Positions 2,938 to 59,500 of a stretch of 64,000 nt of DNA are shown here, piece after piece; the stretch's first letter is position 1, and each line of letters opens with the position of its first letter. The position numbers and the translations under genes were made by a program. The notes under the pieces were generated by a model that saw only the letters and a list, made by a program, of their open reading frames with translations, was not told where the DNA came from and searched no databases. The stretch is from an uncultured Candidatus Saccharibacteria bacterium (GTDB taxonomy: Bacteria > Patescibacteriota > Minisyncoccia > Phycocordibacterales > PALSA-1337). Where the stretch lies: the NCBI GenBank assembly GCA_964467225.1, contig CAYXPQ010000002.1, positions 7,901-71,900 of the forward strand. The letters are read 5' to 3'.

Positions 2938-3042
2938 GCGAATTTAATATACGGTGTATATTTCCCTCTCGTCAATATACATATATTATTTCATTCTTAA
3001 TGATAAGTCAAGACTAATTTTGTAAATAATTACTTTTTCCTG

Positions 3043-3112
3043 TGGAGGTGAGGGGACTCGAACCCCCAAACTCCATTTGACGAGAAGGAATTGTGTACCG
3101 CACACCACCCCC
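3043..3112 (-). tRNA. Atypical tRNA-like gene, 70 nt; anticodon ambiguous (UCA or CGU depending on fold); possible degenerate tRNA or pseudogene
   Basis: Canonical acceptor stem (GGGGGTG/CACCTCC), a T-arm GGGGG-TTCGAGT-CCCCT and discriminator A are present, with no encoded CCA. The D-arm is only 3-4 bp with a 5-nt loop. The anticodon arm cannot be folded canonically: one fold gives G33 with anticodon UCA, the other a C.U mismatch with anticodon CGU and C37. Confidence 0.45.
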
Positions 3113-5141: not shown

Positions 5142-5142
5142 A

Positions 5143-23712: not shown

Positions 23713-24228
23713 TTAACAATTTACACAGTATCCTGGATATGACGCAGCTTCATCTACATGCGATCTACAGTAACCGGAAACACAGTAGTATAAAGCGCTG
23801 TTAACATTGAAGCCACTTGCCCATGACTCATTCGGAAATTTACAGGTAGAAATATTTCCACCAGCTGGACAAAACCTTACACTAATTTGATAGATTTTTT
23901 GTCCTACATGGTCTGGGTCATCCCAATTTTCCCAGTCATAATAACTACCAGGCCAAGATGGGCGTGGCCATGAACTGGTCGTAAGATATGATGTAAAAGC
24001 AGCGGGGAGGTCTCTTGCTGTATCTGGTGGATATACATAATTGTTGTCCATGAGGTATAAAGTCAAGGCTCTTTCTAAAGATCTAAATTCAAGCTTTGTT
24101 CTTGAGAGATTAGCTTTATTTTTTGCTGAACTCATTGAAGCCAATACAACTGTTGATAATAAGCCTATTATAGAGATGACAATTAAAAGTTCTATAAGAG
24201 TAAATCCGCCCTTTATGTTATACATCAT
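23713..24228 (-). CDS. Type IV pilin / pseudopilin (prepilin N-methylation motif)
   Basis: 171 aa. It has the class III signal GFTLIELLIVISIIGLL and a Cys-rich C-terminus, and its GC is above the local average. Confidence 0.75.
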   Translation of the reverse strand: MMYNIKGGFTLIELLIVISIIGLLSTVVLASMSSAKNKANLSRTKLEFRSLERALTLYLMDNNYVYPPDTARDLPAAFTSYLTTSSWPRPSWPGSYYDWENWDDPDHVGQKIYQISVRFCPAGGNISTCKFPNESWASGFNVNSALYYCVSGYCRSHVDEAASYPGYCVNC

Positions 24229-28449: not shown

Positions 28450-28464
28450 GTTAATTATTCTGTG

Positions 28465-28535
28465 AGCCAAATGTGAGAATCGGACTCACGTTCCTACTTT
28501 ACGAAAGTAGTGTTCTGCCACTGAACTAATTTGGC
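28465..28535 (-). tRNA. tRNA-Thr (anticodon CGT)
   Basis: Cloverleaf with acceptor GCCAAAT/ATTTGGC, D-stem GTTC/GAAC, anticodon stem CTACT/AGTAG and loop TTCGTAA. No CCA. Confidence 0.85.
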
Positions 28536-30504: not shown

Positions 30505-30578
30505 GGCGTAGTGGCGAAGTTGGTCAACGCGACAGTCTGCAAAACTGTTATGCACCGGTTCGATCCCGGTCTACGCCT
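30505..30578 (+). tRNA. tRNA-Cys (anticodon GCA)
   Basis: Cloverleaf with acceptor GGCGTAG/CTACGCC, anticodon stem ACAGT/ACTGT, loop CTGCAAA and T-arm ACCGG-TTCGATC-CCGGT. Confidence 0.85.
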
Positions 30579-30587
30579 CAATATTAT

Positions 30588-30896
30588 TTATTCCCTGTGC
30601 AAACTCTTGAATACTGAACCAATAATAAAGAACACTAGTGACAATCCAATAATTACAATAGCTGCACCTTGTTGATAATCAGTGACTTTTAAATTGTCTG
30701 TAAAATAACCAACCACAGTAACAAAAACAGTTAGTAAAATAAATACAGAAAAAGTAGATTTAAAGGGGTACCTACTAACTTTAGTAGAATCATCTAATTT
30801 AAACATTGGATCAGGTTTTATAGCTCCTTCCTTTTCTAAGACAGTTATTTTCTCTTTAACTGATTTTGCTAATAAGTCCTCGCGTATATTTTGCAT
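30588..30896 (-). CDS. Hypothetical small membrane protein
   Basis: 102 aa with two TM helices, embedded in the tRNA cluster. Confidence 0.4.
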   Translation of the reverse strand: MQNIREDLLAKSVKEKITVLEKEGAIKPDPMFKLDDSTKVSRYPFKSTFSVFILLTVFVTVVGYFTDNLKVTDYQQGAAIVIIGLSLVFFIIGSVFKSLHRE

Positions 30897-30963
30897 ACTA
30901 TAATTCTAACATATAATATATTTTGATTATCAACAGCAAAAATGTTAGACTACATTTAGAAAT

Positions 30964-31045
30964 GCCCGAGTGGTGGAACTGGTATACACGCACGACTTAA
31001 AATCGTGTCCTTTACAGGATGTGGGTTCGATTCCCACCTCGGGCA
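30964..31045 (+). tRNA. tRNA-Leu (anticodon TAA)
   Basis: Class II tRNA with a long variable arm, anticodon stem CACGA/TCGTG, loop CTTAAAA and acceptor GCCCGAG/CTCGGGC. Confidence 0.85.
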
Positions 31046-31117
31046 CAGACATCATACAATTGCTAAATAACTATATTTCTGTTATATTTTTTATACAAAA
31101 TATAATAAATACAGTAT

Positions 31118-31190
31118 GCGTCCATAGCTCAGCTGGTAGAGCAGATCCCTCTTAAGGATAAGGTCGTAGGTTCGATCCCTACTGGACGCA
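31118..31190 (+). tRNA. tRNA-Lys (anticodon CTT)
   Basis: Cloverleaf with acceptor GCGTCCA/TGGACGC, D-stem GCTC/GAGC, anticodon loop CTCTTAA and T-arm GTAGG-TTCGATC-CCTAC. Confidence 0.8.
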
Positions 31191-31209
31191 CCCGTTATAT
31201 AACGGAAAT

Positions 31210-31291
31210 GCCGGGGTGGCGAAATTGGCAGACGCACTTGCCTTAGGAGCAAGCGGGGTAACCCATGGAGGTTCAAGTCCTCTCTCCGGCA
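31210..31291 (+). tRNA. tRNA-Leu (anticodon TAG)
   Basis: Class II tRNA with acceptor GCCGGGG/CTCCGGC, anticodon stem CTTGC/GCAAG, loop CTTAGGA and a long variable arm. Confidence 0.85.
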
Positions 31292-31453
31292 CTAGATTAT
31301 TACTATAATAAATATAGCAGCAATATGTGCCTTATTAACCATTGACTTTCATGGTCATTTATGATACATATCTAATGTAGATTTCCTTTACCAGATGTGA
31401 TGAACATTGGTTGAAAGGAAACGAAACTTTGACAACTAGTAGAAAGACATGTT

Positions 31454-32266
31454 ATGGCAAACCCAACAAATCCGCCTGGACCGACACCGAATCCGACACC
31501 AACTCCAGCGCCTGCTCCACAGCCTGCGCCGAATCCGACACCTGCTCCACAACCCCCAAGGAGAATCTCGAGAACTCTGCCTAGTTTGACTCAATTCTGG
31601 AACAAACATTACATGAAATTTTGGGGGGTGTTAGGGGTTTTCCTTGTACTGGTTTTTTTTGTTTCTGTATTTCTTATCATCGACCCTGTGGGAAGATATC
31701 AGAACTATAAGAAACAGCATACCGAAGAGGATTCGAAATCCCAAACTTCACCCAACACAAGCGATTTGGTAACAGTTCCGATAACCAACACCTCTCCCGA
31801 TTCGATCGTACTAGACAGCAACAGCAGAGAAGGTGTGTCTGTTAGTCACTCGACTAACGGCAATGCCATAAAAGTTGTGGGCAACAAAGATTCCCGAGTA
31901 ATAATCAGCATCGGGAGTGACAACCCCACGATTGCTCAATCTCGAAACCCCCTACTCAACCCGGACAGGGTGATCAAGCTCGATGCCTTGAGAGACGGGA
32001 AAATTGAAGCCATTACTGGCTTTTACTACATCACGAATACGGTAAATGCCCTGGAAAACGTTTTGTTCCAGATACCGACGGGATGGGCTATGCAAGCCTC
32101 TACTCTTCCATATCCACCAGGGATGGTGAAGGCGTTAGATGAGCGAGGAAATCCGCTTAATGGTAAGTTGGTAAGTGGAGGTTGCATGTTGGTTCAGAAT
32201 TGCAGTTCCACAATCGATGTAGAACTAAGATGGGAGTGTATGATAATTGCCACAAGTGGCAAGTAA
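31454..32266 (+). CDS. Membrane-anchored protein with Pro-rich N-terminal low-complexity tail (GC-rich island gene 1)
   Basis: 270 aa with a PTPNPTPTPAPAPQPAPNPTPAPQPP tract, one TM, and an extracytoplasmic domain ending in a Cys cluster. The gene is GC-rich. Confidence 0.5.
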   Translation: MANPTNPPGPTPNPTPTPAPAPQPAPNPTPAPQPPRRISRTLPSLTQFWNKHYMKFWGVLGVFLVLVFFVSVFLIIDPVGRYQNYKKQHTEEDSKSQTSPNTSDLVTVPITNTSPDSIVLDSNSREGVSVSHSTNGNAIKVVGNKDSRVIISIGSDNPTIAQSRNPLLNPDRVIKLDALRDGKIEAITGFYYITNTVNALENVLFQIPTGWAMQASTLPYPPGMVKALDERGNPLNGKLVSGGCMLVQNCSSTIDVELRWECMIIATSGK

Positions 32267-32425
32267 CTTCCATCACTCAAAGGGGCGTCACGCAAGTGGC
32301 GCCCTTACTTTTTATATTTAATCATTTATCAATTTATAATGATTTTTCATCATTGACTTACATCAAAAATCATGCTATTATACTAAGTAGACTTTAGTGA
32401 CTTATCCAAGTCTCCTCTACACTTT

Positions 32426-33418
32426 GTGTATTGGGAAATGAGGAAAAGTTTTGACAATCACTGGAAAGAGAGAATGAAAAATAATGACATTTCATACCTA
32501 GGAGCATTCCTTAGGTTCATCCTACTTGGAGGTATTGTGTCGGTAGTCATCTGGTTGATTCTCGGAACAAACACCAAGAATACCCTGTTCATAGGGTTCT
32601 TGGTATGGGGATCACTGTACTTCTTTGTTTTGTTTGATCGCTTTTGGATTAACCCAGACGCAAACACCCAGGTCATACTACAAAATTATTTCCAAAAACC
32701 CAGTAACGGTGGTTATGGAAATATGGTAGACGATCTTGAAATACCAAAAGGACAAAGAGTGGTGGGTACCGGCTGGTCACCAAAGAGGTTCTTTGAGTAT
32801 CCAGTTGGAAATCCAATAGCTACCAAGAATGAGGAAGTTAGAAAACCGATTGAAATCAGGGATAAAAATAACATACCGTTTTCTATTACTCTTCGATTCT
32901 TCTTGAGACCAATCAAAGGTCACTATCTGGCTCGATATCCTTTAATACCAGATGATGTAGCGAAAGACTACTTTACTGGGAGATTCACACAATACATGGA
33001 AGGTGTATTGGCTGACAAAGACGGGGACAAAGATGTCATCAACAAACTTGAAGATGCCAAGAGTGACTTTGCATTAGGTCTTGAGGCAATCTTCGGTGGT
33101 TCAAATACCATTAGTGATGATGAAAAAAGGTATGCAAGAACCGTTCATGACATTGCAATTGTTGAGATTGCAAAAGGAAAAACCGCTCAAGCTGCAGCAC
33201 AAGTCGAGGTGATGGCTCAACAACTGGCCACCGCAACGGAAACTCTTATTAGGAAGGGGGTAGATCCGAGCATAGCAGCTTCCATATCAGCAGCATTAGC
33301 TGAAACTAATGCTGATATAAGGATATTTGGCATCAGTGGTGCAGAACATCTCACACACCTTGGACTCGGTGCTGACACTGATAAATCCAAAGGTCAGAAG
33401 GGAGGCAAATCAAAATGA
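32426..33418 (+). CDS. Membrane protein with SPFH/band-7-like domain and Ala/Gln-rich coiled coil (GC-rich island gene 2)
   Basis: 330 aa with two N-terminal TM helices, a mixed alpha/beta domain, and a C-terminal AKGKTAQAAAQVEVMAQQLATATE coiled coil with a Lys-rich tail. Confidence 0.45.
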   Translation: MYWEMRKSFDNHWKERMKNNDISYLGAFLRFILLGGIVSVVIWLILGTNTKNTLFIGFLVWGSLYFFVLFDRFWINPDANTQVILQNYFQKPSNGGYGNMVDDLEIPKGQRVVGTGWSPKRFFEYPVGNPIATKNEEVRKPIEIRDKNNIPFSITLRFFLRPIKGHYLARYPLIPDDVAKDYFTGRFTQYMEGVLADKDGDKDVINKLEDAKSDFALGLEAIFGGSNTISDDEKRYARTVHDIAIVEIAKGKTAQAAAQVEVMAQQLATATETLIRKGVDPSIAASISAALAETNADIRIFGISGAEHLTHLGLGADTDKSKGQKGGKSK

Positions 33419-33786
33419 ATACTAAGAAATTAGGAAAATGGCTTGGTGCCGCATTCCTACTACTGATGTGGATGCTTTACAGATCTAGCACGTGGTCAAA
33501 TACTGAGAAATCAGATCAAGCCACCACCTTCACCACCCCCATCACCCCCAGCGAATGGACCTGCATACCCACCAAAGGTAAAGACCTCCATTTCTCAATC
33601 ACCCCAACCAATGGGGTGAAACTCAAATACACCGTTGTACTCGACGGCAATATGAGCAACAAGTTTGTCTTTCCAGGGACAAACATACCGCCACACTTGT
33701 ACTATGGTGTGACAAATCTCTGGGTCAAGCTTAATAGTGGACAGATCCATAATGTTGGATACTTGTCCTACTATTGGACTGACTAG
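33415..33786 (+). CDS. Small secreted protein (GC-rich island gene 3)
   Basis: 123 aa with a signal peptide (MNTKKLGKWLGAAFLLLMWMLYRSSTWS). It overlaps the previous gene by 4 nt. Confidence 0.45.
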   Translation: MNTKKLGKWLGAAFLLLMWMLYRSSTWSNTEKSDQATTFTTPITPSEWTCIPTKGKDLHFSITPTNGVKLKYTVVLDGNMSNKFVFPGTNIPPHLYYGVTNLWVKLNSGQIHNVGYLSYYWTD

Positions 33787-33793
33787 AGACCAA

Positions 33794-33830
33794 GAGACCT
33801 GCACGCGAGCGTGCAGGTCTCCTTTCTTTT
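33794..33830. terminator. Strong GC-rich bidirectional terminator at the island/pilin-array boundary
   Basis: Perfect 12-bp stem GAGACCTGCACG-CGAG-CGTGCAGGTCTC followed by CTTTCTTTT. Confidence 0.6.
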
Positions 33831-33852: not shown

Positions 33853-34152
33853 CTAGAATGGTAATACTTCGGGCTGTCCAACTGTATTAGCGACAAATCT
33901 TATTATTCCATATACAGACACCATAATGAATATTCCCACTACTCCCCATAATATATGATTCTTGGATTGATTCCTTCTATCTTCATCTCCCCTGAAGAAT
34001 CCATACAATCCCCATATAAATACTAGAATTGTGACCCCAAATAAAACTTGAATTACAGGCATAACAATATTATCTACAATTTTTGGTACTATAGCATTAA
34101 GAGCCGCATCTGCATTTGAGGCACCATAAACAATTGTAAATAATGGAAACAT
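33853..34152 (-). CDS. Small two-TM pilin-like protein, paralog 1 (VirB2/TrbC-like architecture)
   Basis: 99 aa with two hydrophobic helices separated by the charged loop RGDEDRRNQSK. It is similar to the four upstream paralogs. Confidence 0.5.
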   Translation of the reverse strand: MFPLFTIVYGASNADAALNAIVPKIVDNIVMPVIQVLFGVTILVFIWGLYGFFRGDEDRRNQSKNHILWGVVGIFIMVSVYGIIRFVANTVGQPEVLPF

Positions 34153-34158
34153 ATAAAC

Positions 34159-34530
34159 TTATCTACTTACATTAGTATTTGGATCTATTGTCTTTGGGAA
34201 AAATTGAGTTGGAACTGTATCATCTGTTCTAAATGATCTCTTAAGTATATTTACAAGACCCCAAATAGATAGAATAACAAATAATCCAATAACACCATAT
34301 AATATAGCACGTCCACCTTCTTTTCTTTGATCTTCACCACCTGCGATCAAATACCTTACAACATTCACAACAATCCAAATAACAGAGAATGAAATAAGGA
34401 GAATTATTATTGTATCGCCGATCGTTGTTGCCTTTCGAGTTACATCATCAAGATTATTTATTTGACCAGTAACTTGAGCAAAAACTGATACAGGCACGAG
34501 AGAAATCAAAAACGCAATGAATTTTTTCAT
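34159..34530 (-). CDS. Small secreted two-TM pilin-like protein, paralog 2
   Basis: 123 aa: signal peptide, TM1, loop IAGGEDQRKEGGR, then TM2 ending WGLVNIL. Confidence 0.5.
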   Translation of the reverse strand: MKKFIAFLISLVPVSVFAQVTGQINNLDDVTRKATTIGDTIIILLISFSVIWIVVNVVRYLIAGGEDQRKEGGRAILYGVIGLFVILSIWGLVNILKRSFRTDDTVPTQFFPKTIDPNTNVSR

Positions 34531-34626
34531 AATTAATTATTTAATAATAAACTTCTAATACAGTCCATATTGTAACATTTAGATACCCATTTACAAACTT
34601 ATCTGTGGAAAGAAAGAATAGTGATA

Positions 34627-35181
34627 TTACATATCTCTATTACTATCATAATCAGTATTTGATCCAGAACCAGGATTTGAAACACCACCAAGATTTGTCG
34701 AGCCACCAGTATTAGATACTCCACCCAAATTTGTGGATCCACCTGTATTTGAAACACCACCAAGATTTGTTCTAGAACCTCCTCCTGAATTAAAGATAGG
34801 ATTTGAACTACTATTGTTACTAGATCTAAAACTTCCAAATATAGTATTAGGTGGCAAGTTATTATCTAACTTGAAGCTATTCATCAATATATTTACCAAA
34901 CCCCAAAAAGAAAGCATAACAAAGAAACCTATCACACTCCACATTACATATAGTCCAGCCTCTTTCTTTGCAGTTACATCATCACTACCAGAAATAAAAT
35001 ATTTGTAAACATTGTATACAAACATGAGTACAGCTAATGAAAGTATAAGATATATTGCAATTTGTATATAATCAGTTATTACTCCTGCCAAACCCCTTAA
35101 ATCTTTAGTTTGTTGAGCATAAGATAGGAATGGTATAAAAAATAATGAAGTTATAATTGTTTTTAATTTAAAATTTTTCAT
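34627..35181 (-). CDS. Small secreted two-TM pilin-like protein, paralog 3, with a C-terminal Gly/Ser/Asn repeat tail
   Basis: 184 aa: signal peptide, TM1, loop ISGSDDVTAKKEAG, TM2 ending WGLVNIL, then 3x GGVSNTGGSTNL. Confidence 0.5.
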   Translation of the reverse strand: MKNFKLKTIITSLFFIPFLSYAQQTKDLRGLAGVITDYIQIAIYLILSLAVLMFVYNVYKYFISGSDDVTAKKEAGLYVMWSVIGFFVMLSFWGLVNILMNSFKLDNNLPPNTIFGSFRSSNNSSSNPIFNSGGGSRTNLGGVSNTGGSTNLGGVSNTGGSTNLGGVSNPGSGSNTDYDSNRDM

Positions 35182-35186
35182 ATTTA

Positions 35187-35645
35187 TTATTTTATTGGAC
35201 TATTAAGAATACCCTCTTTCACCACTCCAGCTTGCTTCAAAGTATTTTGTACTATAGTAACGATTACCTTGGAACTTATCAGTACTGCTAATCCTATTAT
35301 TATATATGTAAATTTCTTTTTTGCATCTTCTATCTCTTTTGGATTTCCTTGAGCCAAGACGAATTTGAAACCTGTGAATATAATTGCAAATACTGCATAT
35401 AGTATTCCTATATAAATTAGTATGTCTATGCCTAAATAAATAACTTCTTCAACGCTATCAACCTTTAGAGGGTTCTGAAGCTTCACTAACTGCTGAACTG
35501 GTGTTGTTTTATTTGGATCAGGTTTACCACTAACCGAACCATCAGACACCTTTCCACTGACACTTCCATCGGACTGTGCTAGAACAATATTGGATGCAGA
35601 TAATAATAATATTGTTATTAAAAAAATTTTAATTAATTTATTCAT
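35187..35645 (-). CDS. Small secreted two-TM pilin-like protein, paralog 4, with an N-terminal SDGSVSGK repeat
   Basis: 152 aa: signal peptide, 2x SDGSVSGK, TM1, loop AQGNPKEIEDAKKK, TM2. Confidence 0.5.
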   Translation of the reverse strand: MNKLIKIFLITILLLSASNIVLAQSDGSVSGKVSDGSVSGKPDPNKTTPVQQLVKLQNPLKVDSVEEVIYLGIDILIYIGILYAVFAIIFTGFKFVLAQGNPKEIEDAKKKFTYIIIGLAVLISSKVIVTIVQNTLKQAGVVKEGILNSPIK

Positions 35646-35646
35646 A

Positions 35647-36072
35647 TTATTTTAAATTAGACAGTGTATCTATTCCAGTAAAATTAGGATTCTTTATCCA
35701 ATCTACCAATGTTGTAACAATAAACCATGCTGTCAATGCAATTATAAAACCTATAATTGCATTTTTCATTATCTCTCGAGACCTCTTCAGATCTGTCTCG
35801 GAACCACTAATATGCAGATAACCTGCGTATGCGAACATTCCGGCTACTACTGGAAGTGAAAGTGTAAATGCCCAATTTATCAGTTGATTTATTATTACTA
35901 TAAGATTATAGAAATTACATGATATATTCCTATCTGGTTCAACTAGTTCATTAACCACTCCATCGCATTTTACTAATCCACTATAATCAAGTGAGGCTCC
36001 AACACCCTGAGCCGAAGAGTCATTTGGTATTAGAACTAGTGATAATAGAAATATTAATAATAACTTTTTCAT
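35647..36072 (-). CDS. Small secreted two-TM pilin-like protein, paralog 5
   Basis: 141 aa: signal peptide, mature region with 2 Cys, TM1 (VVAGMFAYAGYL), loop ISGSETDLKRSRE, TM2. Confidence 0.5.
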   Translation of the reverse strand: MKKLLLIFLLSLVLIPNDSSAQGVGASLDYSGLVKCDGVVNELVEPDRNISCNFYNLIVIINQLINWAFTLSLPVVAGMFAYAGYLHISGSETDLKRSREIMKNAIIGFIIALTAWFIVTTLVDWIKNPNFTGIDTLSNLK

Positions 36073-37379
36073 ATATTATTTAAAACAATATCATATTCAT
36101 CACTACCATCCTGCAACGCTTGCAATGAATTCTTCCTTCCACTTGTTACTGATTCAACAATATTCTTAAATAATTTTGTCGATTCATTCTTATTAGTGTC
36201 TAACCATCCCTTGGAGATAACTGCTGAATCGTAGAATATAGATAAATATGGATCTGTAGTTCCAGAAATAATCAGGTCAATTTTGACTGGTGGTAAATAT
36301 GCTAAATCTATCATCTCTTGAAGTGCATCACTGGATATCAGTGAAGAAAGTACAGTAAATGCAGATGCAGGATCTGCTGAACTCCTAACAATAGAAAATC
36401 CATACATAGCTCCATATGTAGCACGGTTCTGTGCACCTCGAGCTTGAGGGATAGGTGCAATATCGAAGTTTAAATTTGGATTTTTATTTCTCAAATCAGA
36501 AATCTCGGAAGCAAAACCAAAATATGTTGCAAGATTACCAGACAAAAAGGAACTCTTAGAATTTGCTATAGAACGATTCCAAGAATAATTAGGATCAGTT
36601 GGATTTGAGAATTGAGTAAAGAAATCCAATGCAGGTTTTGAAGTCTTAGTACCATCAAATCCTCTACTACCTAGTGAGCTGGCTAATGAAATTGGAGCAT
36701 TAGTATCAAAATTTGTCTTATATGTTATAGGATTACCTGCTTGAAGAAATAGTGTACCTAGTATTTCTCTAGCATGAGAAATATTTGTAAATTCACCCAT
36801 AGCTATGGCACTCTTTCTTACATTTGAATTTACATCTTTGATTGTTAACTTATTATTTAGATTTGTAAATTCATCCCAATATTTAGGGTAAGTTGGTATA
36901 CCTGCATTAATAAATGTATCCCTATTCCAATACATTACCATAGGGTCAATTACGAAAGGCAAAGCCAGTGTACCTCCTGACACAAGATACAATTCTGCTT
37001 GCGATATAAAACTACTTTTAAAATCTCTTTCTGTAAGAGCTGTTGGTGGAATCAGAGTAATCTTGTCTACATATCTAGATATTAAATCTTGAGACACCAA
37101 TATCGCATCTGGTCCTTGTCCTCGTGCCAAAGCCTCTATAAATGTTTTGTCAAAATTTAATTCTGATATTTCTGTATAATTTATTTTTAATTGTATTGCT
37201 CTTGTTGAATTAATTCTGCCAACATAATCATTAAAAACCCTAGCTGGAAATGTCCCCCATACAGCTATTGTGGGCAATTCAGTCTTCTGGCTTGCCCCTT
37301 TATAGGTGGCAAATAATGCCACACCAATGATTGCAAAAACTACAAATATTGCTGTTAAAATTGCTTGAAATTTACTCAT
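36069..37379 (-). CDS. Membrane-anchored extracellular solute-binding protein (SBP family 1, MalE-like); orphan, no permease adjacent
   Basis: 436 aa with an N-terminal TM anchor and SBP_bac_1-like motifs (GQGPDAILV, MYWNRDTF). Confidence 0.65.
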   Translation of the reverse strand: MSKFQAILTAIFVVFAIIGVALFATYKGASQKTELPTIAVWGTFPARVFNDYVGRINSTRAIQLKINYTEISELNFDKTFIEALARGQGPDAILVSQDLISRYVDKITLIPPTALTERDFKSSFISQAELYLVSGGTLALPFVIDPMVMYWNRDTFINAGIPTYPKYWDEFTNLNNKLTIKDVNSNVRKSAIAMGEFTNISHAREILGTLFLQAGNPITYKTNFDTNAPISLASSLGSRGFDGTKTSKPALDFFTQFSNPTDPNYSWNRSIANSKSSFLSGNLATYFGFASEISDLRNKNPNLNFDIAPIPQARGAQNRATYGAMYGFSIVRSSADPASAFTVLSSLISSDALQEMIDLAYLPPVKIDLIISGTTDPYLSIFYDSAVISKGWLDTNKNESTKLFKNIVESVTSGRKNSLQALQDGSDEYDIVLNNI

Positions 37380-37927
37380 GGTTTTTTAAATATAATTCCA
37401 TAATGATGGTCGCCTGCATCAAAACTTTTTTCTAATTCCATTCCAACCTTTTGGAAAATACCTTCAGCCAACAAGCGCGGAACTAAAGTCTTAGGACTTA
37501 GTGTGGTACCTTGAGCCCAATCGATCACCATTAATTTGCCACCGGATTTTAAAAGTCTTTTGATCTCAAGAGCTAAATTTTCCCTATCAGCAGATTCAAC
37601 TTGAAACAATGTATTGGAAAGTATTACTCGATCAGCAATAGATTCTCTTAATTTTGTCCCACCAATTTTTTCTATATTTCCCCAAACAACTTCCACATTA
37701 TGCAGACCCATGAGGCCCGCAGATGTCTTGATTTTAGATAGTAAATCTTGCTGAACATCTACTGCATATACCATTCCACGAGGTCCGACTTTCTTGGCAG
37801 ATTCAATAACATAAAAACCTGACCCTGCACCAAGATCAACAACCCTCATGCCATCTGTAATACCACATTCAGCAATATTTTTTTGCGGATCAGAAAACAT
37901 AGGTATATTATACCCTTTTATAGACAA
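37376..37927 (-). CDS. Class I SAM-dependent methyltransferase
   Basis: 183 aa with motif [12 protein letters not shown] and an acidic post-I residue in AVDV. Confidence 0.7.
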
Positions 37928-40392
37928 ATAAGTGAAGCCAAGGAATCCCCATCTCTTAATTTCATTACTCTAACACCTTGAGTTGATCTTCCTAATGTTG
38001 GAATCTCTTTTAGATTAACTCTAATTACTTGACTTTTTTTGGACATTGCAACTATTTCCTCTATATCATCAGTCACAACTTTTGCAGCCATAAGTGCACC
38101 CGTCTTGTCAGTTACATTCATTGTAAGTATTCCGGATCCGCCTCTATTCTGGACTTTATATTCATCAAGTGTTGTTTTCTTTCCATAGCCATGTTCACCC
38201 ATCACAAATAGTGCTGGATTCTTAGCATCTTTTGAGACAACATCTGCACTAATTACTGCATCATCTTTACCAAGTTTTATTATTCTAACTCCTGTTGCAT
38301 TTCTACCCATTTCTCTTACATCACTTTCATCAAATCTGATTGACTGACCATCCCGAGTTGCTATAACTACAGAATCACTCTTTGAAACAAATGATGCAGA
38401 GATTAGTTCATCTCCACTTTCAAGAGTAATAGCAATAAGTCCCGATCTCCTTACATCATGGAAATGCTTGGCTGAGCTCTTCTTGCCTGTACCATTTCTT
38501 GTAACCATCATAAGAGACAGTCCATCTGCTTCCTTTTTATTCTTTGGCATAGGAAGTATTGAGGTGATTTTCTCACCATCTGAAAGAGAAAGAAAATTCA
38601 TTACAGACTTGCCTCTTGTGGCTCTTTTGCCTTCTGGAATATCATACATTTTGATCTGATAAGCCTTACCCTTGTCCGTAAAGAACAAGATATCATTATG
38701 GGAGCTTGCATATACAAGATGAGTAATGAAATCTTCTTCTTTTGTATCAAGGTCTACAACCCCAACGCCCCCACGCTTCTGTTGGCGATATTCATCCGGA
38801 TTTGTTCTTTTTATATATCCACCCTTTGTTAGAACAAGAACACTTTCTTCATCTGCTATCAAATCCTCTGGATTGAAGTCCTTTAGTGCATGCTTTACTA
38901 ATCTCGTTCTTCTTTCATCACCGTATTTAGATTTAATCTCTGTTAATTCATCTTTGATAATACCCCTAACCTTCTTCTCACTACCGAGAATTTCTTTTAA
39001 TTTAATAATCAATTCTTGTATTTCTTTTAATTCATCTAGAACTTTCTTTCTCTCAAGACCAGCTAACTTCTGTAGTCTCATTTCAAGAATTGCTGTTGCC
39101 TGCTTATCTGAGAATTTGAATTTCTTCATCAAATTTGCATGTGCTTCTATAGCATCCTTTGATTCTCGTATCAAAGTAATTATTTCATCAATATGATCAA
39201 GAGCCTTTTTCAAGCCTAACAAGATATGCTCTCGGTCTTCTGCTTTTGTAAGATCAAACTGTGTTCTTCTTCTTACAACCTCTATTCTATGAGTCACAAA
39301 TTCTTCCAAAAGAGATTTTAGAGAAAGAGTTTGAGGAACTCCATTTACAAGTGCAACAATATTTACATGAAAAGTATCTTCTAATTGAGTATGCTTATAT
39401 ATAAAATTAAGAACTTTCTCAGGATATGCACCAGATTTGAGATCAATAACGATTCTCATTTCCTTATCTGATTCATCTCTAAGGCCCTTTATACCATCAA
39501 TAACCTTATCTCTTACAAGATCGGCAATTTTGATAATTAAATCAGACTTTGTAACTCTGAATGGTATTGACTTGATAATTATTTGGAATTGACCCTTTTT
39601 GTCTTCTACAACCTCAGCTTCACCTCTTACAACGATACCTCCTCTACCTGTGGTATATGCATGGTGAATGTCTTTCTCTCCATACATTATTCCTCCAGTT
39701 GGAAAATCAGGACCTTTTATAAACTGTAATAAATCTTCATTTGTTGCACTCTTGTTATCAATAAGATGTGTTGTAGCATCAATAACCTCACCAAGATTAT
39801 GAGGGGCAATATTTGTTGCCATACCAACTGCAATACCTAGAGTTCCATTTAGTAGAAGATTCGGTACAGCTGTAGGCAAGACTGTAGGTTCCTTTCTTGT
39901 ACCATCATAATTTGGATTAAAATTTACTGTATTCTTCTCAATATCCTTTAATAATTCGGATGCAAGCTTTGACATTCTTGCTTCTGTATAACGCATAGCA
40001 GCTTGTGGATCTCCATCAATATTACCGAAGTTACCTTGACCCTGAATAAGTGGGTATCTCATCTTGAAGTCCTGTGCCATACCTACCATAGAATCATAGA
40101 CAGCCACATCTCCATGTGGGTGATAATTTCCCAGGACATCTCCTACTACCACGGCTGATTTACGGAATTTAGCTGAGGAAGTCAAACCTTTCTCATGCAT
40201 TGAATATAGTATTCTTCTATGTACTGGTTTTAATCCATCTCTTACATCTGGTAATGCACGATCTGTAATAACTGACATAGCATAGTCAAGAAATGACTCT
40301 CTCATCTCTGTAGTGATATTTCTTCCAATTATACCCTTTGCTGGATCTCTTGGGATCTGATTTTCAGTATTATCAGTTTGTTTTTTAGCCAT
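37918..40392 (-). CDS. gyrA: DNA gyrase subunit A
   Basis: 824 aa containing [14 protein letters not shown], the active-site Tyr region, and C-terminal beta-pinwheel repeats. Confidence 0.95.
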
Positions 40393-40503
40393 ATTTGTCA
40401 GACTATTATAGCAAAATCATTAATAATTGTCATATTAAATTAGTATTGACTTATACATATTTTTGTGATAGGTTTTGATTGGCGTTCAGTAGTTCTAGAC
40501 ACA

Positions 40504-49288: not shown

Positions 49289-50125
49289 ATGGAATCAACA
49301 CAAGAAACAAGAACAAACCCACTAAACATACCAACAGCAATTGTCATTGCAGGTGCGATTATAGCAATAGCAATAATCTGGACAAAATCTCCATCAATAC
49401 CTAAACAAACAGCTTCAGTAGCTGATTCTTTTGAAACTCAGGTAAAGCCACTTTCAGACACTGATTATATAATCGGCAATCCAAGTGCTCGCGTAAAAAT
49501 AATTGAATATTCTGACCCTTCATGTCCTTTCTGCAAAGTATTCCACAATACAATGAGGAAAATTATGAGTGAATATGGAGCAACTGGCAATGTAGCTTGG
49601 GCATATAGACATTACACATTAGACAAACCAGATGCTACAGGTTTCGTCTTACACCCAAATGCAGGTCGTGAAGCACAAGCCATGGAATGTGCAGGATCTC
49701 TAGGTGGCAATGATAAATTCTGGAAATTCACTAATAGACTTTATGAAATAACACCATCAGTTACAGGTCAGAATCCTAAAGGTCTAGACCCTAAGGAATT
49801 ACCTAAAATAGCAGAATACTCAGGTATTAATGTTACAGATTTCAATAATTGTCTAGCTACAGAGAAATTCAAGGAGAAGGTTGAATCAGACTTTACTGAC
49901 GGAATCAACATTGGTATTCAAGGTACTCCTTCAAGCATAATAGTATTGGACAAGGCCTTCCCTGCATCAATCAAAGAGAAATTAATGCAAATTTATGAAC
50001 CATACAAAAATTCTCAAGGTGAGTATCCAATTAGATTAAGTTCAGATTCAAAAATGATACTTATGGGAGGTGCATTACCTATAGAGACTGTTAAAGCAAC
50101 CATAGACTTACTCTTTACCTACTAA
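49289..50125 (+). CDS. DsbA-like thiol:disulfide oxidoreductase (membrane-anchored)
   Basis: 278 aa with an N-terminal TM and the thioredoxin CxxC motif CPFC. Confidence 0.7.
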   Translation: MESTQETRTNPLNIPTAIVIAGAIIAIAIIWTKSPSIPKQTASVADSFETQVKPLSDTDYIIGNPSARVKIIEYSDPSCPFCKVFHNTMRKIMSEYGATGNVAWAYRHYTLDKPDATGFVLHPNAGREAQAMECAGSLGGNDKFWKFTNRLYEITPSVTGQNPKGLDPKELPKIAEYSGINVTDFNNCLATEKFKEKVESDFTDGINIGIQGTPSSIIVLDKAFPASIKEKLMQIYEPYKNSQGEYPIRLSSDSKMILMGGALPIETVKATIDLLFTY

Positions 50126-53002
50126 GCTAGTACTGAGTTTACAGAATTCACATTCTTTATCATCACAATTTTTATCCCAGAAGGCTAATGAATAGATTTC
50201 ATTAGCTTTTTCTGATATTAATTTCTTTAATTGTTCTATATCATTATCTGTAACCTCAACAACTTCTTTTTTTTGTGATTCAATAAAATCCAATTCACCA
50301 GATCTCATTATGTATTTCTTCTTATCATCTAACTCTAGTAATAATTTATAGAAAATAACTTGCCTCCTATAATTGTCTTTGTTTTCGGATTTCTTTTTGC
50401 CAGTCTTATAATCAATAACATTCACCTCTCTATCATTATAGAACTCGAGCTTATCTATATTTCCTTTTAGAATTAGATCGAATACTCCAGTGTTTAAATG
50501 AACGCCTCTAATACTATATTCTGTGATTAAATTCCTATTCCATATACCCTTATACTTACTATAATATTTAGATAATGTATCTTTACCCTTTGCTAGACTT
50601 TCTTTTATATCAGCAACTGACATAGGAGTCTTTTTTAAATTAAATTCAAAAAGATCTATTAATTCAGCTTCACTAAGATCCTGCTCTTCTCTGTATTTGT
50701 TGAAGAAAATTTGCAATGTATTGTGTATAGCTGTTCCATACATTTGATACTTGGTCTGTGACATTGGTAGTCTTATCAAATTCTTGAAAAAATATTCCCA
50801 AGGACATTTAAGATAATTATTTAATGCTGTAACTGCTAGACCTTGCTCAAGGAATAGCTCTTGCAGGTACTTCTTATTTTTAATTTCATGATTTAAATGT
50901 GTAATAGATTCTGAATGAATATTGATTTTGTGCTTTATCTCATGTTTAGCATTTATTTTATACTCATCTGATATTTCTGAAATGAATTGACAAGGTAACA
51001 TATCCCTGCCACTACTACTAACCTTAGAATAACTTATATTTACAAGCTTTCTAGCTCTCGTTAATGCAACATAGAACAGTCTTCTCTCATCATCAATACT
51101 ATTGTCTTCCACCGAAGCCACAGTAGAGAAATATCTTCTCCTTGTTTTATTGCTCCAATGTCCATCGTTAGCACCAACTATATAGACAATATCAAATTCT
51201 AAACCTTTTGATCTGTGAGCTGTCATAAGCTTCACACTATCATTATTATTTGAATCCTTATTTACTCTAGTTGAGATTCCATGCTCTCTCACTCTATCTA
51301 TATGAACAATAAAGTCTGATAAGAAATATTCCCTCTTGGATCCAGTTAAATTCTTTATCTCAGTAAAAAATGATTCAAGAATAGACATTCTATCTAAAGA
51401 ATCTGATTCAGATAGAATGTAATCAATATATCCAGACTCCCTAACTATCAGACTAAATAATTCAATAAATGAAATATTCTTAGACTTGCTAGACCAAGAA
51501 GATAATCTGTGAGCTAAATCAGGGAACTTCTGAAGTATTATATCTATTAATATTATTTTATTGCGTCTTGATTCTTCTATTGCCTTATATATTTCTATAA
51601 TATTAAGATCAAAAAAATCAATAAATAATATCTTTGCTAATTTCTCCTCATTTGATAAATCATCAATACTATCAAAAATCAGTAGTAATTTTCTAATGTC
51701 ATTATTTTTTAAAATATCATTGTCTGACTCAATAACATAAGGAATATCGGTTTTGCTTAGCAACTCTGCAATAGGAAACGCATCTACATTATCTCTAAAT
51801 AATATTGCAATTTCATTTGCCTTAATACCTTGATTTATTTTTGATTTTATATCCTGGATTAGAAAATTATATTCATCATCACTAGTATTAAATTCATAAA
51901 TATTGACTGGTTCAAGATTATTTTGTGATTTTGACTTTAATTTTACTCTTTCTAAATTATCAATTTTTCTATTATTATCAATCACAGAATGTGAGGCGTC
52001 CAATATGGTTTGAGTTGATCTGTAATTCTCTTCTAGATTTATTATTTTTGCATCTTTATATAATTTTTTGAAATAAAGGAAATTATCCAGTGAAGCACCT
52101 TGAAATTTGTATATTGCTTGCTTCTCATCACCGACAATAAACAAATTTGGATTTGAATGAAAATTAGATAATAATTCTAAAATTGCATTCTGAATATTAT
52201 TGGCATCTTGATGTTCATCTGCGAGTATGTATTGATAACTCTCTTGAAGAATTAATAATAGATCAGAATCACTTCTCAATGTCCTCACAACCTCAACAAT
52301 CATATCCTCAAAATCATAGAATTTATTGATAACTAATGCCTTCTCATATTCAGAATATAATTTATATAATTCTTTATTTTTATTTATTCTATCTCTCAAC
52401 TTTATAAATTCCCCTTTCATCTTGCCCTTATGAACACCCTTGGCATGCACCTTGTCAGGAATATTATCAAAATCAAATTGTTGCTTGCTTATTATTTCTT
52501 CGAATTTTTCTGGGCTAATATCATCTTTTTTTAAATTTTTGATCTCACTTAATGCGGGTTTTATATAGTAATAAATATCTCCAAACGGTTTAATGATTGA
52601 AAAATCATTATTATCAATTATCTTCTCCATTATTGAAATCTGATCAATCTCGGTGATAGATGTAGAACCGATTATTCTTGGGAATTTCTCAGGGAATTGC
52701 TTTATTATTTCATTACAAAATCCATGAAATGTATTTATATTTACCTTATATGCAGAAGTACCTATAAGTTCCAACAACTTCTTCCTCATAGCAAATACTC
52801 CTGATTCAGTAAAAGTTAAAGCCAAAATATTCTCAGGTGATGTATCTGTTTTATCTAAAATATTTGCAATTCTTAATGTTAGGATTGAGGTTTTACCTGT
52901 TCCTGGACCTGCAATAACCATCACTGGACCCTCTATAGTGTCCACTGCGTCCTTCTGGGCCTTATTAAGGCGTTTGTATTGTTCTGTGAAAATTTGTTGC
53001 AT
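50108..53002 (-). CDS. UvrD/PcrA-family helicase fused to a C-terminal PD-(D/E)xK nuclease with a Cys4 (AddB/Cas4-type Fe-S) cluster
   Basis: 964 aa. Helicase motif I is AGPGTGKTS. The C-terminus carries the RecB-nuclease motif VIDYKTGK, and Cys residues at CPWEYF and CDDKECEFC frame the nuclease domain. Confidence 0.8.
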   Translation of the reverse strand: MQQIFTEQYKRLNKAQKDAVDTIEGPVMVIAGPGTGKTSILTLRIANILDKTDTSPENILALTFTESGVFAMRKKLLELIGTSAYKVNINTFHGFCNEIIKQFPEKFPRIIGSTSITEIDQISIMEKIIDNNDFSIIKPFGDIYYYIKPALSEIKNLKKDDISPEKFEEIISKQQFDFDNIPDKVHAKGVHKGKMKGEFIKLRDRINKNKELYKLYSEYEKALVINKFYDFEDMIVEVVRTLRSDSDLLLILQESYQYILADEHQDANNIQNAILELLSNFHSNPNLFIVGDEKQAIYKFQGASLDNFLYFKKLYKDAKIINLEENYRSTQTILDASHSVIDNNRKIDNLERVKLKSKSQNNLEPVNIYEFNTSDDEYNFLIQDIKSKINQGIKANEIAILFRDNVDAFPIAELLSKTDIPYVIESDNDILKNNDIRKLLLIFDSIDDLSNEEKLAKILFIDFFDLNIIEIYKAIEESRRNKIILIDIILQKFPDLAHRLSSWSSKSKNISFIELFSLIVRESGYIDYILSESDSLDRMSILESFFTEIKNLTGSKREYFLSDFIVHIDRVREHGISTRVNKDSNNNDSVKLMTAHRSKGLEFDIVYIVGANDGHWSNKTRRRYFSTVASVEDNSIDDERRLFYVALTRARKLVNISYSKVSSSGRDMLPCQFISEISDEYKINAKHEIKHKINIHSESITHLNHEIKNKKYLQELFLEQGLAVTALNNYLKCPWEYFFKNLIRLPMSQTKYQMYGTAIHNTLQIFFNKYREEQDLSEAELIDLFEFNLKKTPMSVADIKESLAKGKDTLSKYYSKYKGIWNRNLITEYSIRGVHLNTGVFDLILKGNIDKLEFYNDREVNVIDYKTGKKKSENKDNYRRQVIFYKLLLELDDKKKYIMRSGELDFIESQKKEVVEVTDNDIEQLKKLISEKANEIYSLAFWDKNCDDKECEFCKLSTSLVGKE

Positions 53003-53076
53003 ATGGATTGGATTAATGATATATTAACATTACAAACGGCTTTTAGCCCTCCCCGCAAGGGGTAAAAAGGGAAATC

Positions 53077-53466
53077 TCATACAAGTAATTGTGTGAGATT
53101 TTTCTTTATTTCAATAAAATCGCCTTTTGATAAAATACCCATTTTATACTGAAGCCTCTTTCCGTCAATTAAGCGAATTTGTGAAAGTATTGCTGTACTA
53201 ATTAAATTATCCATATTGAATGAAAAATAATATGGTCCCTTTTTGTTATTTTTTGTCAGTGGAACACCCCATAAGATCTCATTATTGAATTTTTTAACTA
53301 CCACAATTGGTCTCAAGAACTGAGGTCCTCTACCATCCTGTTCAAAACCAACATTTAATCCCATAGAACATGACCATATCTCTGCTTCACGGAAATGTGG
53401 CCTTGCCTTATCATTTTGTAGTATTGTTTTATTATTGTGCCAATTGAGATATTCTTTAGACTCCAT
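53077..53466 (-). CDS. MazF/PemK-like endoribonuclease toxin homolog (orphan, no adjacent antitoxin ORF)
   Basis: 129 aa carrying a PemK-like pattern (GFEQDGRGPQFLRPIVVV...GVPLT). No small upstream ORF lies in the 120-bp gap before rpoD. Confidence 0.45.
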   Translation of the reverse strand: MESKEYLNWHNNKTILQNDKARPHFREAEIWSCSMGLNVGFEQDGRGPQFLRPIVVVKKFNNEILWGVPLTKNNKKGPYYFSFNMDNLISTAILSQIRLIDGKRLQYKMGILSKGDFIEIKKNLTQLLV

Positions 53467-56537: not shown

Positions 56538-59500
56538 CTAAATTATCTGCTTAACTCCACTAAGTATGCGCACTGGGATCTGTTTGATGAATTCAGCAAT
56601 TTTATTTAATATTCCTTTGATATATTGAACAAACACATCATTATATGATAAGGGATCAAAATTAAAGTATTCGGAATCATCATTGAATATATAGTCAGTC
56701 ATTTTATCTGGAGTAGGATTAGTAGATTTTATGTTTTTAGTTGAAACACCAGTCGGATTATTTGTCGAAGTATTCTTTACTGGAGTTACTTTTATATTTA
56801 CTTGTTTGACTGTTGGTACAATAGTACCGAGACCAGCCTTTATTGGTGTATAAACAATATTTGGTGCAATATTTGGAACATAATTTGCCCCTCCTTCTAT
56901 TACTTCGTACACAGAGAATCCATCGACGTTAAATACTAATGTTTTATTTATGAATGAAATAATACTACAAGTTGTACATGGAGTTCCGTCCTTCAAGATC
57001 TTAGGTTTTATTACATTTACATTGTACATAGTAATAATGGCTCTCTTATTTAATTGTGGTAGATTTTTAGAATTTAGTGAGACCTTATTTTGTGAGAATA
57101 CAAGATTAGAATCAATATCTAATTGATTAATAATTGATGAATCATCGTTATATAATTTTGTTGGTTGTCTAAAATTAATTTTTCCAAGTGTGCTTTTGCC
57201 AATTATGAAGTCCGGATAATATGATAGATCTTGATCGAAATTTGGCTTTATATCAAAATTATCGACTTTTGGCTTTGGACATCCATATTTATTAACTACC
57301 GATCTTAATGATGCAGAAGTATTCTGACACATATCAGAAGAATCCATAACTCCATCTAAATCTGTGTCGACAGTAATTAATATTCTTGTAGTAAATGTAT
57401 TATCTGTTGAAACAGAAACATTGCCAGATGCATCCTTAGTTATTACTCTATAGTGGTACAAAGTATTTGGATTCAATCCTGAAATTGATATTGAATGAGA
57501 ATTTACAAGAGTTTGACTAAATGAAGTACTATTGCCATAAGAATCAGTCAAACCATATTCTATCTGAGCATATGTTGGCTCATTAGTCTGGAATGTAATT
57601 GTTGTTTCTCCAGCAGTTACAGAAGGTGCAGCAACATTATTTATTATTGGAGGAATACTATCTATTTCGACAATTACATTAGCAATTGTAACGTTTACTG
57701 GATTAGATATTGCGGTATTACCATTTATATCTGTAGCTTGAGCAGTTAATATATGATTACCATTTGTAACTCCTACAGTATTCCATGCACCAGAATATGG
57801 AGGTTGAGTAAATAAACCTCCAAAATTCACACCGTCCAATTTAAATTGAACACTTTGTACTGCTATATTATCAGTAGCAATAGCCAGAATTGGAACAGAA
57901 TCTTTTATAATAGAATCATTTGTTGGTGAAGAAATAGAAATAGTGGGAGGAGTTGTATCAGCCGCGATAATATTGAAAGAACATGAAGCATTTGTACCAC
58001 CATTTGACTCAACACAAGACCAAAGATTTTGAGTTGCAGAATCTGGCAAATCAGAGAATGCTCCAGAGACACATTGGTTAAGAATCGCTGAGCATTGTCC
58101 AGTAACAACAATAGGGGTTGGAGGCGGATCTTCAGGTAGTGTTGGTGCTGAATAATTTACAGCACTATTCTTTATTGCTGTTCTAGTAGTTGTATTACCT
58201 ATGAATTCTGTAAACCAATAATAAGTTTTACCAGAATTTAATTTATACCGATTATATATTTCACTATATGTTAAAGCTTTTTTGTACATCACAAACTCAT
58301 CAATAAAACCGTTAAATGAAGCCCCGGAGCCAGAATATCCCAGTACAAATAGATTGTTGTTGTCAGACTTTGTAAATGCAGGAATTTGGCATGCAGGAGC
58401 TGGAGTAAGTCTTGGTGTAGGACAATTTGTGTCTTTCGTACCTCCAAGATTTCCATTTACATTCTTACCATCTAGATATATGTCCATTTTTCTTAATTCT
58501 TGCTGAAAACCAGAACCATCAAATACAAAGACTAGGTGATGATAGGTGTTATCTGCTGGGAATTTAATATTGCTATATCTTTCTCTAGTAATTGTTCCAT
58601 CAGAGACTTGAAATATTATCTCCCTACCTGTCTCACGTATTCTAGCTGCATAAGGTGAGAAATCTAATGAGAAACTACTAACATCGCCCTTTGAAAATAG
58701 TCGAGAAGAACCATTCAAAGATGGGGATTTGAGCCACATCTCAATAGTGAATTGATTTAAGTTATTTAAACTTAAATCATTTGGAATTCTAATGCTCTTT
58801 GAATTAGTTGTACCATCAGATTTTAATCCGCCAGCAAATTTTCCATATGAATCTCCATACTCAAGTGTTCCAGCAACTGTGTTTACCAAAGTGGCATTTC
58901 TAGCATAAGAGCTGAAATCCTTTACACTAGTTGTAGTCTCAGCCATCTCTGCTCTTTTGTCAAAATGATACAACATTAAGGTATTTGAATCAGAAGTACG
59001 AATAGGAGCATCCCACGGATAAGTTATTGTACTTCCATTTGCCACATCTTGAGCAAACAATAGATCATTAATTCCAGGTGATGGATTTTCACTTCCAAAA
59101 ACTCTTACTCTCATAGGGTTTTTGTCACCATTTACTGCTTCACTAATTAGTATACTGTCATTACTTGCAACAGTGCCAAATTGGAAGAAAGTTTTATTAA
59201 CTAAATTGGGATCATATGTATTTACTGTAATATAAACTGGGTTATTATTGAGAGTATAGCTAAATCTTTGTCCTGAAGAATAATTACCCAATACCTTACC
59301 AAACATATCATAAATTGTAATTGCTGCAGGTAATGAGTTATTCTCTATTACAACTGTCTTGCCGGGTACATCTGTCCACGCAACCATCACACTATTATTT
59401 GTATCCTTAATGAACTGCATCATTACAATACTCTCGTCATCCACAAAATCGCCTTTAGCAACATAACCTTTAAATTTAATATTCGCACCATCAAGAAAAT

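Follow-up and report, generated by a model that had tools for sequence, protein, structure and literature searches.

What are the five small membrane proteins encoded side by side at 33853-36072, on the minus strand, of a 64-kb stretch of DNA from an uncultured Candidatus Saccharibacteria bacterium (contig CAYXPQ010000002.1; the whole 64-kb stretch is referred to here as the window), and what do they do next to a gene for a sugar-type solute-binding protein (SBP) and more than 25 kb from any type IV secretion system (T4SS) gene? By family profile, the five genes, named pil1 to pil5 along the direction of transcription, code for pilins of the VirB2/TrbC superfamily, of the Patescibacteria type (Pfam family PF18895, T4SS_pilin). 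They are probably specialised VirB2-like subunits of a Patescibacteria T4SS-type apparatus, encoded away from its motor genes and put together by a VirB4-type machine whose genes lie elsewhere. A preliminary description of the window had proposed five consecutive genes for proteins of 99-184 amino acids (aa) with a VirB2/TrbC-like pilin plan; the open reading frames (ORFs) have these borders, the proteins align as a family, and the pilin reading is upheld by the family matches that follow.

All five proteins score above the gathering cut-off of PF18895 (26.6 bits), with 42 bits for pil1, 38 for pil2, 30.9 for pil3, 35.3 for pil4 and 36 for pil5, a result that, at the level of sequence profiles, is not due to chance. 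A profile built from the five pilins retrieves 360 database proteins at E values of 1e-5 or below, and PF18895 is present on all 120 that are listed; among these homologues are one labelled 'pilin [Patescibacteria group bacterium]' and one from a 'Candidatus Nomurabacteria bacterium', and the closest labelled relatives carry the names 'Candidatus Saccharibacteria', 'Patescibacteria group bacterium' and 'Candidatus Nomurabacteria'. A Pfam scan of pilin ORFs sampled from related loci assigns 148 of 148 to PF18895, and 23 of the 148 also match TrbC/VirB2 (PF04956) at E values of 0.001 or below (best, 8.2e-10). On that second family pil5 scores 15.7 bits. The NF045849 profile, which describes pilin-like proteins of Mycoplasma integrative and conjugative elements (ICEs), matches all five weakly (16-31 bits; E values of 1e-7 to 5e-3), below its 40-bit cut-off. 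In a one-family multiple alignment pairwise identity ranges from 11 to 37.5% (mean, 23.5%), with invariant glycines in the loop and the second transmembrane (TM) segment. With five contiguous genes, a mean identity of 23.5%, a maximum of 37.5% and a Patescibacterium host, the locus fits the published definition of a 'VirB2 array', in which pilin genes stand in tandem or are separated by one gene (PMC12102498). The 64-kb window contains no sixth pilin-like ORF beyond the five.

The shared plan is visible in the proteins themselves. Hydropathy shows two hydrophobic TM segments in each, the first of which is weakly hydrophobic in pil1 (Kyte-Doolittle maximum, 1.69), and signal-peptide and TM assignments follow hydropathy and the -3/-1 rule. 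The predicted segments are joined by the charged loops given in the preliminary description (IAGGEDQRKEGG, ISGSDDVTAKKEAG, RGDEDRRNQ, AQGNPKEIED and ISGSETDLKRS), all of which are present, with three to five Lys or Arg and three Asp or Glu residues per loop; WGLVNIL likewise occurs in two members, pil3 and pil4, which are 39% identical. The plan of one signal peptide and two TM segments stands for the TM part in all five proteins and for the signal peptide in four of them. Classical signal peptides, with an MKK or MNK n-region, a hydrophobic core and an A-x-A/Q site (the slash marking the junction), are found in pil1 to pil4, and the alanine at -1 is almost invariant in the pil4 family; pil5 and 24 orthologues share instead the short leader M-x-F-L-P-K-I-A-H-A/ASSADAVVN. 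The low-complexity tails that had been described are also correct in part: the tail of pil3, GGVSNTGGSTNL, is a 36-nt tandem repeat of 2.8 copies (34669-34770), but the two copies of SDGSVSGK in pil2 and the Cys pair of pil1 (C36 and C52) lie in the mature N-terminal regions and are not tails. An AlphaFold2 model of pil4, from 107 sequences, has a pLDDT of 72.6 and consists of a signal helix and a hairpin formed by residues 28-62 and 66-100.

In VirB2 and TraA the loop is cytoplasmic and both ends are outside. The same orientation is predicted for the five pilins because of the three to five Lys or Arg residues in each loop (positive-inside rule). We therefore picture pil1 to pil4 as exported by Sec and cleaved after A-x-A, and pil5 as inserted by way of its short N-tail; all five would then be held in the membrane as hairpins with both ends out and the charged loop in the cytoplasm, as in VirB2 and TraA.

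Three other identities were considered for the array. The first, that of type IV pilins or pseudopilins (class III signal peptide), is ruled out, as the N_methyl motif G-F/Y-T-L-I/V-E occurs in none of the five; signal peptides and PF18895 membership speak against holins or bacteriocin-type peptides; and an origin from a prophage or defence island is rejected, since the orthologues are syntenic within the core chromosome.

The gyrA-methyltransferase-SBP-pilin block

The array is the downstream part of a co-oriented and tightly packed block with the order gyrA, class I S-adenosylmethionine (SAM) methyltransferase, membrane-anchored sugar-type SBP, pil1 to pil3, an internal promoter-like element, pil4 and pil5 (Table 1). 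The methyltransferase stop overlaps the start of the SBP gene by 4 nt, and the SBP stop overlaps the start of pil1 by the same length. A profile of the SBP finds sugar- and maltodextrin-binding proteins in the PDB (4r9f, 5e-22), and there is no ABC permease gene near its gene. PADLOC reports a methyltransferase-domain match to mad2, which is generic and is regarded as uninformative. The SBP may work together with the filament, as a sensor of a ligand or as a receptor. A precedent is PrgZ, the SBP homologue of the pCF10 conjugation system, which captures the inducing pheromone.

The only sizeable gap within the array, 96 nt between pil3 and pil4, holds the internal promoter-like element. In relatives, too, the gap before the penultimate pilin gene is the longest, with a median of 102 nt versus 5-19 nt elsewhere, and a match to TTGnnn-N16-18-TAnnnT is present in 29 of 37 such gaps. 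A YCC[AC]CA box, which could be a regulator-binding site, stands 4-9 nt upstream of the -35 element and occurs in 21 of 34 unique gaps, versus 0.74 expected from shuffled sequences. No RNA family is found in the array region with Rfam, and a terminator-like hairpin closes the array. This arrangement suggests two transcription units, one reading through from gyrA to pil3 and a separately promoted pil4-pil5 pair. We infer that pil4 is the best candidate for a major subunit, because it is the most conserved of the five, has a low dS and shares a promoter-like site with pil5; the others would be minor, initiating or tip subunits.

The block was followed in relatives by a metagenome scan with the SBP alignment, which gave 80 loci with SBP identities of 39-59%, screened with hidden Markov models (HMMs) built from the pilins, SBPs and methyltransferases. 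A pilin ORF on the same strand starts at the SBP stop in every one of the 71 loci that have at least 400 nt of downstream sequence. Of the 68 loci that extend far enough upstream, 60 have the methyltransferase gene next to the SBP gene, and 39 of the 45 that reach 3.5 kb or more upstream include gyrA. Contigs with a pil1 of 79% identity show the complete order from gyrA through five pilins, and methyltransferase, SBP and pilins stay together at 46% pilin identity, including a locus (L010) in which a gene for RNase HII takes the place of gyrA. In an 825-kb JGI contig (L095), an insertion immediately upstream of the methyltransferase gene (4089-6325) contains genes for a rolling-circle Rep-like protein and a large serine recombinase, and the unit of methyltransferase, SBP and five pilins is intact despite it. 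Assembly GCA_016199805.1, labelled 'Candidatus Nomurabacteria', shares the layout of the window, with an S1 gene, gyrA, methyltransferase, SBP, six pilins, a convergent Band_7 gene, rbfA and infB. Judged by this synteny and by the labels of relatives, the window most likely comes from a Nomurabacteria-like member of the Paceibacteria. A distant locus on a 'Patescibacteria group bacterium' contig (L009), with identities of 26% for the SBP, 35% for the methyltransferase and 28% for the pilins, is organized as SBP, one pilin, methyltransferase and six further pilins.

In three related loci an additional pilin gene stands alone between gyrA and the methyltransferase gene. It is divergently oriented in L012 (3266-3703) and L017 (5464-6012) and on the same strand in L086 (4946-5389); the L012 copy is 64% identical to pil4 of the window.

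Table 1. Features of the pilin locus and its surroundings. Positions are those of the window; aa identity and the ratio of nonsynonymous to synonymous substitution rates (dN/dS) compare the window with its closest relative, locus L004, for which dS is partly saturated (0.6-2.3) and dN/dS values are approximate.
Feature	Position	Strand	Description	aa identity to L004	dN/dS
Three convergent genes	31454-33786	+	270-aa Pro-rich TM protein; 330-aa divergent SPFH/Band-7 membrane protein; 123-aa secreted or anchored protein
Terminator-like hairpin	33794-33821		GC-rich, 12-bp stem; between the convergent pil5 and 123-aa genes
pil5	33853-34152	-	99 aa; shortest pilin; short conserved leader replaces the classical signal peptide	85%	0.075
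pil4	34159-34530	-	123 aa; most conserved of the pilins	95%	0.049
Promoter-like element upstream of pil4	34569-34609	-	TCCACAG box (34603-34609, about 5 nt upstream of the -35 element), then TTGTAA, 16-nt spacer and TACAAT preceded by TG (TTGTAA to TACAAT, 34596-34569)
pil3	34627-35181	-	184 aa; Gly/Ser/Asn-rich repeat tail	79%	0.092
pil2	35187-35645	-	152 aa; two SDGSVSGK copies after the signal peptide; fastest-evolving array member	67.5%	0.162
pil1	35647-36072	-	141 aa; signal peptide SSA/Q; Cys pair in the mature N-region; two TM helices	79%	0.147
SBP gene	36069-37379	-	436 aa; SBP_bac_1, 55.8 bits; N-terminal membrane anchor; family-1 sugar/maltodextrin type	83.5%	0.079
Methyltransferase gene	37376-37900	-	174 aa (ATG as in gene callers); class I SAM methyltransferase; matches to Methyltransf_11/25/31 and Ubie	86.7%	0.042
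gyrA	37918-40392	-	first gene of the block; GyrA by translation, and by Pfam in relatives	97.6%	0.023
Promoter-like site at gyrA	40405-40433		11/12 match, with TG

Proposed assembly of the pilins and alternative readings

If the five proteins are T4SS-type pilins, a VirB4/VirB6/VirB3-type system encoded elsewhere in the genome would extract them from the membrane and polymerise them into a pilus-like filament, in which they would be non-redundant subunits and which would serve contact or exchange with the host cell. A T4SS elsewhere in the genome is the simpler assumption because published Patescibacteria arrays are widespread and because VirB4 is recorded in 19 of the 20 Nomurabacteria assemblies in the first part of Table S1 of PMC12102498. 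In the same survey pilins and VirB4 occur together in 1,948 assemblies, and the pilin genes are near virB4 in only 1,135 of these (PMC12102498), which leaves 813 in which they lie away from it.

Several observations weigh against this interpretation. Among all ORFs of at least 90 aa in the 64-kb window there is no VirB4, VirD4, VirB11, VirB6, VirB3/PrgI or VirB8, so that the remark in the preliminary description that no T4SS ATPase lies nearby holds for the whole window, and a Pfam search of 20 representatives of the large flanking-ORF families from 45 long loci finds no T4SS gene other than one family resembling type IV coupling proteins (T4CPs). We take a T4SS to be present in the source organism by extension from published genomes, the genes read here being those of the window. 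The best TrbC score in the window, 25.7 bits for pil2 (E value of 1.3e-5), is just under the PF04956 cut-off of 27.9 bits. HMM and phmmer searches of PDB sequences with the pilins return no VirB2, TraA or other conjugative pilin, and a Foldseek search of the PDB with the pil4 model gives no match at E < 1, only generic helical hairpins. The proposal that pil4 is the major subunit draws on its conservation and on a consensus promoter match, and the cited literature reports no visualised pilus of PF18895 proteins in any Patescibacterium.

The T4CP-like family consists of a 922-aa P-loop ATPase encoded directly upstream of the methyltransferase-SBP-pilin block in L021 (3597-6365) and found also at the 3' end of L067. 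The L021 protein scores 24 bits on TrwB_AAD_bind (cut-off, 20.5) and 21.6 bits on TraG-D_C and matches DUF87 as well; its gene is preceded by one for a VWA-domain protein, and a phmmer search of the PDB with the ATPase gives no match.

A different possibility is that the methyltransferase-SBP-pilin block is itself the functional unit, with the orphan SBP working directly with a five-subunit VirB2-like filament, either as its partner in assembly or as the sensor or receptor of glycans from the host, and possibly independently of a canonical T4SS cluster. This is a tentative and rather doubtful reading; if true, it would be a coupling of an SBP with conjugative-type pilins that has not been described before.

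Taken further, the SBP and the five two-TM proteins could form a self-contained envelope device that needs no T4SS, either a VirB4-free filament or a complex, coupled to the SBP, that serves as a receptor or in uptake or sensing, with the methyltransferase as an accessory. The constancy of the locus favours such a module: the SBP and pilin genes, which overlap or nearly abut, are adjacent in 71 of 71 loci of the clade, and their link outlives the upstream changes in L010 and L095 and persists in L009 at 26% SBP identity. It is also in keeping with an SBP gene that has no adjoining ABC permease gene and with the lack of T4SS machinery within 7-10 kb on either side of the block in about 45 long loci. 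The proteins are nevertheless homologous to TrbC/VirB2 pilins, and the homologous array of Candidatus Southlakia epibionticum lies, without an SBP, inside an essential T4SS cluster. The near-universal VirB4 of the listed Nomurabacteria assemblies points the same way, as does the T4CP-like ATPase that abuts this block family in two loci, and the 813 assemblies noted above show that distance between pilin genes and virB4 is common. A T4SS-independent module is thus unlikely, and assembly by a T4SS encoded elsewhere remains the preferred reading.

The paralogues could also be an interchangeable repertoire of major pilins that serves antigenic or host-range variation. They are strongly divergent from one another (mean identity of 23.5%), they are 67-95% identical to their L004 counterparts where GyrA is 97.6% identical, and both the low-complexity tail of pil3 and the number of pil3-type copies vary. 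Comparison of array positions shows, however, that each paralogue retains its place, its length class and a 1:1 orthologue down to 40% SBP identity. The best match of pil1 is always the first array gene (45 of 45 loci) and that of pil2 mostly the second (43 of 46); pil4 corresponds to the penultimate gene in 31 of 42 and pil5 to the last in 36 of 43. Array sizes in relatives are five genes (15 loci), six (14 loci) or seven (6 loci), and the pil3 type alone varies in copy number, with a variable position in related arrays. Purifying selection on the pilins is indicated by dN/dS ratios of approximately 0.05-0.16, there is no sign of homogenisation or shuffling, and the architectures differ, with no classical signal peptide in pil5 and a Cys-pair domain in pil1. 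These comparisons show five long-established paralogues, each with a set position and a 1:1 orthologue, that evolve faster than housekeeping genes yet under purifying selection, with no ongoing diversification or cassette shuffling; the preliminary description's view of the family as diversifying is not supported. Fixed positions, purifying selection and differing architectures are what distinct structural roles would be expected to produce. A variant repertoire is therefore improbable, and the findings speak against an antigenic-variation reading of the arrays in this clade.

That the genes are unrelated small membrane proteins or spurious ORFs, pilin-like in hydrophobic composition only, is extremely improbable and is refuted in practice: short two-helix hydrophobic proteins do match many unrelated Pfam membrane families weakly, and Foldseek cannot tell helical hairpins apart, but all five exceed the curated cut-off of one single family, the homologues found with their joint profile carry that family wherever listed, and the orthologues are conserved under purifying selection.

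Neighbouring genes in the window

The window is ordinary low-GC chromosome (GC of about 0.33), with genes that include gyrA, rpoD, dnaG, rpoC, infB, rbfA, mreBC, ftsEX, a murE-like gene and those for penicillin-binding proteins, aminoacyl-tRNA synthetases and CTP synthase. Three genes convergent with the array occupy the same positions, between the rbfA/tRNA cluster and the pilins, in L004, L011, L012, L095 and L096. They are hypervariable, the 330-aa and 123-aa proteins being 24% and 56% identical, respectively, where GyrA is 97.6% identical, and their GC of 0.39-0.415 compares with about 0.33 for the window. Alignment of the SPFH-like neighbour families with hhalign gives weak support (P of 8e-4 to 0.013), and PADLOC and PHROGs return no match for the convergent genes. 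From its sequence, the three-gene region looks like an allelic replacement in a slot for variable surface proteins. It is bordered by a cluster of four tRNA genes (Cys, Leu, Lys, Leu; 30505-31292).

Several other features lie further from the array. At 23713-24228 (minus strand) lies a gene for a 171-aa protein with a Pfam N_methyl match and a class III signal peptide (MMYNIKGGFTLIELLIV), a type IV pilin or pseudopilin, from which it appears that the genome also encodes a filament protein of the type IV pilus or type II secretion system kind, unrelated to the VirB2-like array. A giant predicted surface protein of 2,050 aa (56538-62690, minus strand), between dnaG and rpoC, contains Laminin_G_3, PKD, fn3 and Big_7 domains, with a weak GH10-like match and sub-threshold matches to CBM_4_9 and TSP_3, and is a candidate adhesin or glycan-binding protein. 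Directly downstream of rpoD (50108-53466, minus strand) are two neighbouring genes, one for a 964-aa fusion of an AddA-like UvrD helicase with a PD-(D/E)XK nuclease and one for a PemK/MazF-type toxin (129 aa). ARAGORN predicts tRNA-Thr(CGT) genes at 3042-3112 and 28464-28535 (both minus strand), of which only the second is confirmed at the Rfam gathering threshold and the first is doubtful. At the edge of the window (358-924, minus strand) is a gene for a 188-aa LexA-like Peptidase_S24 protein with an N-terminal region resembling a helix-turn-helix.

Comparison with known pilin arrays

Few envelope systems have been shown to be indispensable to a cultivated Patescibacterium living as an epibiont, and VirB2-like pilin arrays are among them. 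In the clade described here the array is detached from T4SS genes, is invariably linked to an orphan SBP of the sugar type and usually has a small methyltransferase as well; its paralogues keep fixed positions and are not interchangeable, and the last two apparently have a promoter of their own. Hypotheses on filament building and sensing follow, with major and minor subunits and with the SBP as a partner.

Arrays of four to six small VirB2-related proteins with signal peptides were reported in Saccharibacteria in 2018, among them the 'Sec-secreted array' of TM7x (bioRxiv 10.1101/258137). A survey of 3,035 Patescibacteria genomes, focused on 20 coding sequences to either side of virB4, describes 441 arrays of 2-11 genes with a mean identity of about 25% and a maximum of 54%, most abundant in Microgenomatia and Saccharimonadia (Quinonero-Coronel et al. 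2025, PMC12102498), and a 2025 review treats Patescibacteria systems as the one monoderm exception with VirB2-like pilins (PMC12857230). The suggestion in the preliminary description that the family is specific to this lineage is not supported, as arrays of this kind are common among Patescibacteria and have been published (PMC12102498, PMC10633639, bioRxiv 10.1101/258137). The window array, with five tandem genes, signal peptides and a mean identity of 23.5%, resembles the surveyed arrays and that of TM7x in all these respects. It differs in the positional orthology of its paralogues, which is not described in the accessible text of PMC12102498; the same text contains neither 'solute' nor 'substrate-binding', and its single 'methyltransferase' is KsgA near virB4. 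Within the literature covered, a search for Patescibacteria together with solute-binding protein and T4SS yields no paper, and the coupling of an SBP with a pilin array appears to be undescribed. The pilin array itself is of a kind already known in Patescibacteria, and its context is the addition.

The closest cultivated parallel is Candidatus Southlakia epibionticum ML1, whose six PF18895 pilins (SEML1_0014-0019) are encoded within a VirB4/VirB6/PrgI cluster that is essential (Wang et al. 2023, PMC10633639). Both are tandem sets of five or six small, divergent PF18895 proteins, some of which match TrbC, in a monoderm Patescibacterium and without a relaxase context. The Southlakia array, from Saccharimonadia, lies within its VirB4/VirB6/PrgI cluster and has neither an SBP_bac_1 nor a methyltransferase partner, whereas that of the window is attached to the gyrA-methyltransferase-SBP block. 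The Mbov_0395 family of Mycoplasma ICEs (NF045849) shares an 80-residue two-helix core and belongs to the T4SS of a wall-less monoderm, although its members are single genes in ICEs and the genes described here form a chromosomal array.

The TrbC/VirB2 pilins of diderms (Agrobacterium VirB2, RP4 TrbC and F TraA) are likewise small proteins with a leader, two hydrophobic helices and a short charged loop, and the homology is evident at the profile level. Some of the diderm pilins are cyclised or acetylated, and there is usually one gene per system. Their genes lie in virB or trb operons beside VirB3 and VirB4, in contrast to the pilins of the window, which score slightly under the PF04956 cut-off and lack relatives of solved structure. 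Tandem sets of several divergent virB2 copies are also found in Bartonella and Anaplasma, intracellular animal pathogens in which the paralogues are regarded as antigenic or host-range variants, a role also suggested for Patescibacteria (as cited in PMC12102498). The copies in the window differ from these in being positionally fixed orthologues under purifying selection.

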